In this document: piece after piece, positions 17,997 through 29,838 of the stretch
How positions within the stretch are numbered: the first letter of the stretch is position 1
Layout: the number at the start of each line of letters is the position of its first letter
Assembly (NCBI RefSeq): GCF_016026235.1
Contig: NZ_CP065613.1
Length of the DNA: 64,000 nt
Source: Escherichia coli
Lineage (GTDB): Bacteria; Pseudomonadota; Gammaproteobacteria; Enterobacterales; Enterobacteriaceae
Strand: one strand, 5' to 3'
Notes under the pieces: model-generated
The model's input: the letters and a program-made list of their open reading frames with translations, nothing else
What the model was told of the DNA's origin: nothing
Databases searched by the model: none
Program-made: the position numbers and the translations under genes

Positions 17997-18244
17997 AGTA
18001 AGTCCTTTCGTAAAACTTTCGTTTCATTTCGTTTTGCCTATTAACGCCTTTCTATTAAGCAAATGCAAGCCCACCTTGCCCATTGACGCAAGCTACTCTC
18101 GTTTCAGTGACTTTCATTATGTTTCTTTTGTGAATCAGATCAGAAAACTATTATCTTTCGTTTTATTTTTATCTCACCATGACGCAGTATCAACTGAAAC
18201 AAAACGAAAGATTAATATCGCAGTAATCTGAACTGGAGAGGAAA
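17997..18244. promoter_or_regulatory. divergent agaR / kbaZ promoter with multiple CTTTCGTTT-type repeats (AgaR operator-like)
   Basis: Repeats visible: cctttcgtaaaactttcgtttcatttcgtttt, tatctttcgttttattttt, aaacaaaacgaaagatta. Confidence 0.6.
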
Positions 18245-23261: not shown

Positions 23262-23335
23262 TGGTTTGCTCCATTATTGGGCCTTCACTTCCCCCGTAAG
23301 GCCTTTCTTTTTCTTTCGTTTTGATCTGTGCAGCG

Positions 23336-23393
23336 GTGTCGGATGCGACGCTAACGCGTCTTATGCGACCTACGGTACGCCGCATCCGGCAAT
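23336..23393. repeat. REP-like palindromic element
   Basis: gtcggatgcgacgctaacgcgtcttatgcgacctac ... gccgcatccggc, REP-like dyad. Confidence 0.5.
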
Positions 23394-23399
23394 CGGTGA

Positions 23400-23611
23400 A
23401 CATAGCGACGTCATTACGCAATTCTTTAATCTTCCCTTGTCTTTTCTTTCAATGATCGCAGATTTCGTTTTATTTCCTTTTTCTCCATTGAACTTTCGGT
23501 TTCTTTTCTATAGATTTTAATCAACGAAAGACATCACCAAGTGAAATGAAACGAAAGGCAAGTGAAAGCGACAACGCCCGACGTCAAGTTCATCAGACTA
23601 AGGATTGAGTT
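23400..23611 (+). promoter_or_regulatory. agaS promoter region with CTTTCGTTT-type repeats (AgaR operator-like)
   Basis: Repeats: gatttcgttttatttcc, aactttcggtttcttttc, aacgaaagacatc, gaaatgaaacgaaaggcaagtgaaagc. Confidence 0.55.
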
Positions 23612-24766: not shown

Positions 24767-25639
<873 letters not shown>

Positions 25640-25733
25640 TCATTAGTTTTTTATGATTTATCCCAATGTACTTCCCGATTAATATCGGGGAGTGCCTTAA
25701 TGGAAAAGGAGATGACTAAACCTTAATAAATAC

Positions 25734-25742
25734 ATCAGTACA
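25734..25742. repeat. left copy of 9-bp target-site duplication ATCAGTACA
   Basis: Identical 9-mer directly abuts both IS1 ends. Confidence 0.9.
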
Positions 25743-25757
25743 GGTAATGACTCCAAC

Positions 25758-26261
25758 TTATTGATAGTGTTTTATGTTCAGATAATGCCCGATGACTTTG
25801 TCATGCAGCTCCACCGATTTTGAGAACGACAGCGACTTCCGTCCCAGCCGTGCCAGGTGCTGCCTCAGATTCAGGTTATGCCGCTCAATTCGCTGCGTAT
25901 ATCGCTTGCTGATTACGTGCAGCTTTCCCTTCAGGCGGGATTCATACAGCGGCCAGCCATCCGTCATCCATATCACCACGTCAAAGGGTGACAGCAGGCT
26001 CATAAGACGCCCCAGCGTCGCCATAGTGCGTTCACCGAATACGTGCGCAACAACCGTCTTCCGGAGACTGTCATACGCGTAAAACAGCCAGCGCTGGCGC
26101 GATTTAGCCCCGACATAGCCCCACTGTTCGTCCATTTCCGCGCAGACGATGACGTCACTGCCCGGCTGTATGCGCGAGGTTACCGACTGCGGCCTGAGTT
26201 TTTTAAGTGACGTAAAATCGTGTTGAGGCCAACGCCCATAATGCGGGCAGTTGCCCGGCAT
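25758..26261 (-). CDS. insB: IS1 InsB (transposase C-terminal part, made as InsAB' by -1 frameshift)
   Basis: 167-aa [25 protein letters not shown]... Confidence 0.9.
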
Positions 26262-26455
26262 CCAACGCCATTCATGGCCATATCAATGATTTTCTGGTGC
26301 GTACCGGGTTGAGAAGCGGTGTAAGTGAACTGCAGTTGCCATGTTTTACGGCAGTGAGAGCAGAGATAGCGCTGATGTCCGGCGGTGCTTTTGCCGTTAC
26401 GCACCACCCCGTCAGTAGCTGAACAGGAGGGACAGCTGATAGAAACAGAAGCCAC
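26180..26455 (-). CDS. insA: IS1 InsA (transposition inhibitor / transposase N-terminal part)
   Basis: 91-aa [43 protein letters not shown] (zinc-finger + HTH). Confidence 0.9.
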
Positions 26456-26510
26456 TGGAGCACCTCAAAAACACCATCATACACTAAATCAGTAAGTTGG
26501 CAGCATCACC

Positions 26511-26519
26511 ATCAGTACA
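26511..26519. repeat. right copy of 9-bp target-site duplication ATCAGTACA
   Basis: Identical to 25734..25742. Confidence 0.9.
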
Positions 26520-26582
26520 ATATCGCAACAATAATATATTTAAAAAAATTATATTATTCAACTTTATGGTGAGGATTACACA

Positions 26583-27059
26583 ATGAGCAGTCCAAATATT
26601 CTCTTAACCCGTATTGATAACCGTCTGGTTCACGGTCAGGTTGGCGTGACCTGGACATCCACCATCGGTGCGAATCTGCTGGTAGTCGTGGATGATGTTG
26701 TCGCTAACGATGATATTCAACAGAAATTAATGGGTATTACCGCAGAAACCTACGGCTTTGGCATTCGTTTCTTTACTATCGAAAAAACCATTAACGTCAT
26801 CGGCAAAGCTGCACCGCATCAGAAGATCTTCCTGATTTGCCGTACGCCACAAACGGTACGTAAATTGGTAGAAGGTGGCATTGACCTGAAAGATGTCAAC
26901 GTCGGCAATATGCATTTCTCGGAAGGGAAAAAGCAAATCAGCAGTAAAGTTTATGTCGATGACCAGGATCTCACGGACTTACGTTTTATTAAACAACGTG
27001 GCGTGAATGTTTTCATTCAGGACGTCCCTGGCGATCAAAAAGAACAAATCCCTGACTAA
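26583..27059 (+). CDS. agaB: PTS galactosamine-specific EIIB
   Basis: 158-aa ORF, paralogous to agaV (LTRIDNRLVHGQVG). Confidence 0.9.
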   Translation: MSSPNILLTRIDNRLVHGQVGVTWTSTIGANLLVVVDDVVANDDIQQKLMGITAETYGFGIRFFTIEKTINVIGKAAPHQKIFLICRTPQTVRKLVEGGIDLKDVNVGNMHFSEGKKQISSKVYVDDQDLTDLRFIKQRGVNVFIQDVPGDQKEQIPD

Positions 27060-29438: not shown

Positions 29439-29838
29439 CCAGATGAAAAATTTGCTCAAAATGTTTAAATTAACTTATTCAACAGTCACGCATTATATTA
29501 AATAACATTTGACTGGGTTGAACATAACGCCAATAGCAAAAGGAGTTATGTTCAACAATTTAATTTTAGATATACATATAACTTGTTCTATTAATAAACC
29601 ATCTCGTATTCTGACTCGCCCCTTGGCCCAGCAAAGTCAGGCATTTATACTCTTTTTAACACATAGAAAATTCATATAAATATAATAAAAACATCAAATA
29701 TTTGCATATAAATATAATCTTAAAGTTTAGCCTATTTAATGTTCAATGAAATATTTCTACCTGTATAATCTTTAAAGATGTTGAACATATATTCACATTA
29801 AATATGATTATGTACTTGTTACAAGGATAAGGTTATAA
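29439..29838 (+). promoter_or_regulatory. AT-rich upstream region of yraH fimbrial operon with direct and inverted repeats
   Basis: 400 bp strongly AT-rich; direct repeat catataaatataat twice; inverted repeat ttgaacataac...gttatgttcaa. Confidence 0.4.

Follow-up and report, generated by a model that had tools for sequence, protein, structure and literature searches.

What does the AT-only palindrome immediately upstream of agaB do in a strain in which an IS1 element has landed between it and kbaY, the preceding gene of the operon? We addressed this question in the 64,000-nucleotide stretch of Escherichia coli DNA that was analysed here (the window), in which an earlier note had suggested that the palindrome may be a site for a regulator other than AgaR or an intrinsically bent promoter element, any promoter here being the only native route to agaBCDI expression. 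The reading that we favour, with about even confidence, is that the palindrome is incidental to an AT-rich intercistronic tract that acts through its base composition, including H-NS cover and an AU-rich agaB leader. The anatomy of the locus, its conservation pattern and the published dependence of these genes on the operon promoter PS and on H-NS are established, and the roles proposed below are built on them.

Anatomy and chance expectation of the palindrome

The two arms, AATAATATA and TATATTATT, are complementary at 9/9 positions and enclose an AT-only inner spacer (Table 1), and the same letters can also be read with a 5-nt gap and 12-nt arms that contain one mismatch. The interval first described, 26528-26560, is the palindrome with two extra bases on each side, and the AT-only inverted repeat reported there is the sequence that we find. 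The distance to agaB had been put at about 25 bp, and we measured 24 nt between the end of the right arm and the ATG at 26583; relative to this ATG, the AT-only tract (100% A/U as RNA) runs from -53 to -25. IS1 had been placed about 10 bp away; we find that the left arm begins 10 bp past the target duplication and 19 bp past the IS1 end.

Table 1 Features around the agaB palindrome, in window coordinates, and positions of IS1 in the kbaY-agaB spacer, given as the distance in bp from the right IS1 end to the agaB ATG.
Feature	Position	Strand	Genome or basis
kbaY, upstream neighbour of agaB in the agaS-kbaY-agaBCDI operon	24779-25639	+	
Left part of the native kbaY-agaB spacer, IS1 now between this part and agaB	25640-25742	+	
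Left copy of the 9-bp IS1 target duplication ATCAGTACA	25734-25742		
IS1, 768 bp, insA and insB intact, IRL end towards agaB	25743-26510	-	
Right copy of the 9-bp IS1 target duplication ATCAGTACA	26511-26519		
Left arm AATAATATA	26530-26538	n/a	sequence read directly
Sigma-70-like candidate: -35 TTGAAT (26561-26556), 17-bp spacer, -10 TATATT (26538-26533)	26533-26561	-	promoter scan, 9/12 match
Inner spacer of the palindrome TTTAAAAAAAT, AT-only, 11 nt, with an A7 tract	26539-26549		
Right arm TATATTATT	26550-26558	n/a	
agaB Shine-Dalgarno GAGGA, within the conserved block TTTATGGTGAGGATT	26571-26575	+	
agaB, galactosamine PTS IIB component, 158 aa	26583-27059	+	RefSeq annotation, identical loci
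IS1, 182 bp to ATG			L095
IS1, 146 bp to ATG			L094
IS1, 143 bp to ATG			L006
IS1, 139 bp to ATG			L093
IS1, 92 bp to ATG			L009, L010 (one orientation); L096 (opposite orientation)
IS1, 72 bp to ATG			this window
IS1, 65 bp to ATG			L007, L008
IS1, 24 bp to ATG			L097

With IS1 and one copy of the duplication removed, the native kbaY-agaB spacer is 166 bp long and 72% AT; its left part contains a GC-rich hairpin at about 25670-25693, and no terminator-like site that could act as an intrinsic terminator was found in it. The spacer is uninterrupted in 5251 of the 5426 complete E. coli genomes, its identity across the species is 94-100%, and the IS1-free site matches some E. coli genomes at 100% identity, which bears out the earlier view that the palindrome is native sequence. 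The gene order agaS-kbaY-agaB-agaC-agaD is found in 24 of the 27 Enterobacteriaceae loci examined, the exceptions being L022 and L026, without agaS and kbaY upstream, and L036, without kbaY. Across the loci examined, the length of the kbaY-agaB spacer ranges from 59 to 353 bp.

The known aga promoters are three (PR, PZ and PS), and AgaR, a DeoR-family regulator, binds all of them. Its operators resemble the palindrome in being repeat-bearing DNA upstream of aga genes, but they consist of CTTTCGTTT-type repeats, as seen at the agaR-kbaZ and agaS promoters, and have no sequence in common with it. A pattern search that allowed up to one mismatch recovered clusters of such repeats at 18016-18210 and 23303-23557 alone, with the interval 25640-26582 free of them; the palindrome had rightly been set apart from the AgaR operators, as no repeat of this type occurs anywhere in the kbaY-agaB spacer.

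We then asked how often such a repeat arises by chance. In local mononucleotide shuffles, a perfect repeat of at least 9 bp with a spacer of 3-20 nt had P = 0.018 in the 63-nt segment and P = 0.036 in the 43-nt AT-rich segment. When the whole window was shuffled inside 30-100-bp blocks, keeping local composition, 0.12-0.2 AT-only repeats were expected per window, and at least one repeat of this kind appeared in 10-15% of the shuffles. The agaB palindrome is the sole AT-only case among the 26 perfect repeats of at least 9 bp in the window, and extrapolating the window rate gives about ten comparable repeats per genome by chance. The repeat is genuine yet statistically marginal against chance in AT-only sequence, and the caveat attached to its first description, that low-complexity AT DNA can form such repeats by chance, was largely right.

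Unequal conservation of the two arms

We aligned the locus across ten species or lineages and measured how far E. albertii and five Citrobacter diverge from the window. The left arm diverges at 4% of its positions (2/54) and the Shine-Dalgarno block at 7%, against 24% (13/54) for the right arm, 33% for the 11-nt inner spacer and 39% for the sequence upstream of the palindrome. The two arms thus differ about six-fold, and the right arm drifts near the background rate. Watson-Crick symmetry is 9/9 in E. coli, 7/9 in E. albertii and 5-8/9 in Citrobacter, and there are no compensatory changes between the arms, with zero pairs altered on both sides. As for conservation in other aga clusters, which had been proposed as a check on the palindrome, the symmetry is kept in Escherichia alone. 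Since a selected hairpin or a two-fold operator needs equal constraint on its arms, the inequality that we observe is evidence against both.

Within E. coli the palindrome is usually intact, and the inner spacer is polymorphic (A>T, A>G and T>A). The arms vary as well, at their ends: in the L011 lineage the right arm reads CATATTATT, a change at its first base, and in strain E69 the first base of the left arm is altered. Beyond the species, the homologous spacer and the left-arm motif are confined to Escherichia and Citrobacter, and other genera carry unrelated spacers of 59-215 bp. Apparent copies of the left-arm motif in Kosakonia, Pseudocitrobacter and Enterobacter sp. 10-1 were rejected, since the resemblance is no better than in shuffled sequence, which restricts the homology to Escherichia and Citrobacter. 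We think that evolution has preserved three things here: a high content of AT, the left half and the block next to the Shine-Dalgarno.

H-NS, promoters and the agaB leader

The locus has a well-documented relation to H-NS. agaB is an example used by Forrest et al. 2022 of an H-NS-targeted gene at which H-NS curbs spurious initiation, in vivo and in vitro (PMC8894471). Their Δhns measurements give log2 changes of +4.02 for agaB, +2.88 for kbaY, +2.08 for agaC, +1.08 for agaD and +1.01 for agaI, compared with -0.43 for agaS, -0.56 for agaR and -0.18 for kbaZ; namely, agaB rises 16-fold and agaS is unchanged (PMC8894471). Antisense starts within kbaY and agaB also increase in Δhns among the published entries listed (PMC8894471), which indicates that the region fires spuriously. 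H-NS-bound intervals were reported at 3283857-3283947 and 3284318-3284863 (PMC8894471), and the palindrome, at 3284117-3284145 in MG1655, falls outside both of these ChIP intervals, in the 370-bp gap between them. The 50-bp segment that contains the palindrome is 82% AT, the highest value of the region. The palindrome resembles the H-NS-silenced AT-rich DNA of that study (PMC8894471) in lying at the same locus and in carrying -10-like hexamers on both strands, but the study placed its starts and bound intervals within kbaY, agaB and agaC and not at the palindrome. From this setting we infer H-NS contact at the palindrome itself, and the ChIP intervals, which flank the palindrome without covering it, speak against this part of the compositional reading.

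On the RNA side, a precedent comes from the paralogous mannose PTS operon, in which the manX-manY spacer carries an AU-rich translation enhancer, dependent on the ribosome and S1, about 30 nt upstream of manY (bioRxiv 10.1101/808485), whose activity follows A/U content and not exact sequence (bioRxiv 10.1101/808485). The agaB tract is likewise an AU-rich intercistronic tract, tens of nucleotides upstream of an internal gene, in the same PTS family, and the tolerance of the manY enhancer to sequence change matches the kept composition and drifting right arm of the agaB tract. The two also differ: the manY element is short, U-rich (-28 to -38), footprinted and a target of the sRNA SgrS, whereas the agaB tract is 29 nt long, AT-only and palindromic, and its left half is stricter than such a model needs. 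Despite substitutions, the AT content of the leader between -55 and -21 stays at 77-91% wherever Escherichia or Citrobacter have a homologous uninterrupted spacer. A part for S1 and the leader at agaB is what we infer from this likeness.

Taken together, these observations suggest the following picture. The 29-bp palindrome is the AT-only core of the 166-bp kbaY-agaB spacer, and its two-fold symmetry would be incidental. As DNA, it would form the AT-richest part of an H-NS-silenced patch across kbaY, agaB and agaC, in which RNA polymerase would meet promoter-like hexamers on both strands and H-NS would hold them quiet. As part of the operon mRNA that starts at PS, it would form an AU-only leader with next to no structure, 13-41 nt ahead of the agaB Shine-Dalgarno, and such an AU tract could aid the loading of 30S and S1 where a long untranslated gap precedes the gene. 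On this reading it serves no regulator of its own and, as a promoter, would not suffice for agaBCD, and in this strain the polar IS1 19 bp upstream would sever agaBCDI from PS. Three further observations sit uneasily with a compositional reading. The left arm, at 2/54, is stricter than composition predicts and hints at a sequence-specific constraint; AU-rich agaB leaders are not general, as other genera have 40-77% AT at the same leader position; and in one Citrobacter strain (L023), whose leader is 54% AT, about 140 bp of inserted sequence separates the AT tract from the Shine-Dalgarno.

The main rival is a minus-strand sigma-70 promoter, probably H-NS-repressed, that would send an antisense transcript over the spacer and the 3' end of kbaY and, in the window, would read into the IS1 IRL in the sense direction of insA. 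We consider it possible but unlikely. The native spacer has no promoter-like match besides this candidate (Table 1), which scores 9/12 with the optimal 17-bp spacing, and its hexamers and spacing are kept in 8/10 aligned species and in L023, with a direct reading of the alignment showing that E. albertii retains TTGATT-16-TATATT. It would also explain the asymmetry of the palindrome, as its -10 is the left arm, its -35 is the conserved ATTCAA by the right arm, whose end it overlaps, and what lies between them, most of the right arm included, varies; the antisense starts that rise inside kbaY and agaB in Δhns fit the same idea. Weighing on the other side, matches of equal quality are as frequent in shuffled sequence (1.7-2.4 expected), the 39% divergence downstream of the putative start argues that there is no conserved product, and no start near MG1655 3284113(-) is found among the published table entries listed. 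More broadly, the published supplementary entries listed contain no transcription start at MG1655 32840xx/32841xx, and the SMRT-Cappable-seq and p19 dsRNA supplements have no start entry for the kbaY-agaB spacer. A more specific form of this rival, a conserved, H-NS-controlled antisense promoter made of the left arm and ATTCAA that tunes kbaY or agaB by transcriptional interference, we regard as distinctly unlikely. If such an antisense promoter were real, its transcription in this strain would enter the neighbouring IS1 in the sense direction of the transposase gene, and a host promoter silenced by H-NS would be linked to IS1 activity in a spacer that IS1 hits repeatedly.

The tract may also have no function at all, as a neutral AT-rich spacer with a chance palindrome whose conservation in Escherichia reflects recent common ancestry. 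The window-level chance of 10-15%, the 94-100% spacer identity throughout E. coli, the entirely different spacer in other genera and the E. coli polymorphisms in the inner spacer and at both arm ends would all be expected of such DNA, but between Escherichia and Citrobacter the left arm (4%) and the Shine-Dalgarno block (7%) are held far below the adjacent 33-39%, a non-neutral pattern that makes complete neutrality improbable.

On the plus strand, the palindrome could supply a weak internal agaB promoter, with TAATAT (26532-26537) or TATATT (26535-26540) as a -10-like hexamer, for basal expression independent of PS. These left-arm hexamers are conserved, with T1, A2 and T6 kept even in the Citrobacter G variant, and the 16-fold rise of agaB RNA in Δhns, not shared by agaS, implies some PS-independent start upstream of or in agaB. 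What makes this promoter very improbable is that our scan detected no plus-strand sigma-70-like site with 16-18 bp spacing around the palindrome or in the native spacer, and that no aligned species offers an acceptable -35 at 16-18 bp. Genetic data point the same way: in E. coli C, deleting part of agaS has a polar effect on agaBCD (PMC3668189), and nothing short of a plasmid that covers agaS to agaD relieves the galactosamine-negative phenotype (PMC3668189). This polarity ties agaBCD to PS and leaves the spacer without a sufficient promoter. The genomic-SELEX catalogue of constitutive promoters contains no kbaY/agaB entry (PMC3946193). The 'agaB mRNA' of Forrest et al. 2022 is 684 nt long on a template ending at 3284645 (PMC8894471), from which we estimate a start roughly 120-130 nt upstream of the ATG (about 118-133 nt, assuming that 75-90 nt come from the vector terminator), away from the palindrome; such a start lies upstream both of the palindrome and of the position of IS1 in the window. 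With no plus-strand sigma-70 site, dependence of agaBCD on PS and no SELEX entry, the idea of a promoter element for agaB is not upheld. In a SlyA overexpression study the operon was 2.5-fold up, with no site mapped. A mini-ORF that overlaps the agaB start (ATG GTG AGG ATT ACA CAA TGA, 26566-26586) was set aside, as its frame and length are not kept in E. albertii or Citrobacter.

A candidate operator, read through its two-fold symmetry by a dimeric factor other than AgaR or by a nucleoid protein of the IHF/Fis type, would account for the perfect 9-bp inverted repeat (local P about 0.02-0.04) and for its regulatory-looking position upstream of a transporter gene, and 89% of the arm cells in the alignment can still pair if G-U is allowed. 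Yet the half-sites are not conserved jointly and show no compensatory change, the 20-bp centre-to-centre distance and 11-nt AT spacer are unlike those of AgaR repeats, and no second copy with up to three mismatches is present in the 64-kb window. By eye, there is also no apparent match to the operator consensus sequences of NagC/Mlc, ArgR, Nac/LysR (T-N11-A), Fis or IHF. We judge an operator highly improbable, and the proposal of a site for another regulator is not supported, as the arms are not co-conserved (2/54 versus 13/54). A candidate new-regulator site is thereby removed from the aga cluster, and the sequence takes its rank with ordinary AT-rich intercistronic tracts, which are under H-NS cover and may help a downstream gene of the operon to be translated.

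The weakest alternative, which we hold to be extremely improbable, is that the repeat works through structure, be it a cruciform when the DNA is supercoiled or an mRNA hairpin of A and U that signals processing or stability. The isolated 35-nt RNA folds better than its shuffles (z = -4.4), its hairpin appears in the predicted fold of the native spacer, and the DNA can form 12 pairs, with one mismatch, around a short loop of 4-5 nt, but the predicted stability is only -3.7 kcal/mol for RNA and -3.9 kcal/mol for DNA, folding of the 81-nt leader gives z = -0.55, and the right-arm changes break pairs with no covariation. A stable hairpin was rejected on this low energy and absent covariation. An Rfam scan of the native locus returned no relevant family, its only hit being a chance snoRNA match inside agaB (E = 0.58).

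IS1 insertions in the aga spacers

The element next to the palindrome is the only IS1 in the window, and IS1 occupies this exact site in none of the complete E. coli genomes. The spacer as a whole is hit repeatedly: in eleven complete E. coli genomes IS1 lies within the kbaY-agaB spacer or at its edge, and together with the insertion in the window this gives at least 8 distinct sites, in both orientations and with 8- or 9-bp duplications (Table 1). None of the surveyed insertions falls inside the palindrome (26530-26558).

Two other spacers, surveyed by the same method, served as controls. In 19 genomes IS1 lies within or close to the agaI-yraH spacer (400 bp, 74% AT, H-NS-bound); match spans put these insertions at about 13 distinct positions, of which about 10 are within the spacer and the rest at gene edges. 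The agaA-agaS spacer (350 bp, 56% AT) has no IS1 in either orientation. As IS1 is common in both AT-rich spacers and absent at agaA-agaS, its recurrence tracks AT-rich, H-NS-associated spacers. IHF and H-NS are host factors implicated in IS1 transposition (PMC12428005), and a preference of IS1 for AT-rich regions associated with nucleoid proteins matches the recurrent landings here, although it tracks such spacers generally and not the palindrome. The palindrome as a specific attractor of IS1 was rejected, since agaI-yraH collects IS1 at similar density, with 3.6-4.2 sites per 100 bp seen here, and no insertion lies within the palindrome. Selection, in the form of tolerated loss of galactosamine uptake, is a confounder for this recurrence. 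IS1 lands time and again in the kbaY-agaB and agaI-yraH spacers of natural E. coli, and AT-rich, H-NS-associated spacers of this kind would direct where insertions erode a sugar pathway that the cell can do without.

IS1 is polar in either orientation. Its insertion in the kbaY-agaB spacer parts agaBCDI from the upstream promoter PS, as had been recognized from the start. We also considered a hybrid promoter built on TTGGCA, an outward -35-like hexamer in the IRL end of IS1, and rejected it: the hexamers found 16-18 bp downstream, AATATC, ATATCG and TATCGC, make poor -10 elements, and the plus-strand scan around the site was empty as well. At the -65 insertion in L007, the partner of TTGGCA would be AACAAT, a better -10, which makes a hybrid promoter no general feature. 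As IS1 is polar, no plus-strand promoter-like site was found between IS1 and agaB, and TTGGCA lacks a usable -10 partner, we predict little or no expression of agaBCDI; in this strain they are probably silent or very weakly expressed, and the galactosamine transporter genes would probably owe their silencing to the polar IS1. kbaY and the N-acetylgalactosamine branch, in turn, are predicted to be still under PS.

IS1 in and around the aga spacers

Among 5426 complete E. coli genomes, 11 carry IS1 inside the native 166-bp kbaY-agaB spacer or at its edge; together with the window copy, these insertions represent at least eight distinct positions and include both orientations of the element. One 9-bp target, RACTAAACC, located 92 bp before the agaB ATG, was used in three different sequence backgrounds and again in both orientations. 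Several of the sites, whose IS1 right ends lie 146, 143 and 139 bp ahead of the agaB ATG, cluster just before the GC-rich hairpin that follows kbaY or at its start. The same junction search identified 19 genomes with IS1 in or near the agaI-yraH spacer (74% AT), at approximately 13 distinct positions as judged by match span, and returned no IS1 in the agaA-agaS spacer (56% AT). In this neighbourhood, IS1 recurrence therefore follows the spacers that are AT-rich and H-NS-bound.

IS1-associated rearrangements were found at the locus in two genomes. In NZ_AP025180.1 (L097), IS1 adjoins CAACTTTATGG, directly past the right arm of the AT-only palindrome upstream of agaB, with yhaV on the opposite flank; the deletion extends from yhaV through the palindrome, which is itself included. 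In NZ_CP100525.1 (L008), the other IS1 flank is a garD fragment. IS1 lies within agaC in NZ_CP178694.1 and in about 281 genomes, a widespread lineage of E. coli that also carries the variant tract AATAATATATTAAAAAAAATCATATTATT, with one palindrome pair broken.

Features of the aga locus (window coordinates unless another source is named)
Feature	Position	Detail
GC-rich hairpin	25670-25693	ACTTCCCGAT-TAAT-ATCGGGGAGT; ~30 nt past the kbaY stop
IS1, kbaY-agaB spacer	25743-26510 (window copy)	Other carriers: E. coli loci L006-L010, L093-L097
agaI-yraH spacer	29439-29838	
agaA-agaS spacer	23262-23611	
Counterpart of window kbaY-agaD	3283143-3286269 (MG1655)	
Mini-ORF	26566-26586	ATG GTG AGG ATT ACA CAA TGA; six codons
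Insertion, Citrobacter amalonaticus S646	2336-2476 (L023)	~140 bp
Inverted repeat, Phytobacter ursingii	~2445-2465 (L028)	ATGATAAT-GAA-ATTATCAT; 8-bp, AT-rich
CTTTCGTTT-type repeats	18016-18210, 23303-23557	Two clusters; both strands

H-NS silencing and predicted transcript structure within the operon

In the Δhns RNA-seq results drawn from PMC8894471, agaB rose 16-fold, kbaY 7-fold and agaC 4-fold, but agaS, the first gene of the agaB operon, is given there as unchanged. This pattern therefore implies that H-NS-silenced starts exist inside the agaS-kbaY-agaBCDI operon. Those of these silenced starts that have been mapped lie in MG1655 at 3283908, 3284569, 3284673 and 3284823 (PMC8894471). The GC-rich hairpin, after which no T run is present, dominates the structure predicted for native spacer RNA (z = -2.2); between kbaY and agaB it may mark a boundary of mRNA processing or stability.

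The agaB leader and AgaR-type repeats

The Shine-Dalgarno of agaB lies within the mini-ORF, whose stop overlaps the agaB start codon (ATGA); in E. albertii and Citrobacter the mini-ORF is kept neither in frame nor in length. The C. amalonaticus insertion falls between the AT-rich tract and the agaB Shine-Dalgarno; the tract itself is kept, with a symmetry of 8/9. The P. ursingii repeat lies in an unrelated spacer, at a distance upstream of agaB similar to that of the palindrome. The CTTTCGTTT-type clusters coincide in position with promoter regions known to be bound by AgaR, one at agaR-kbaZ and the other upstream of agaS.
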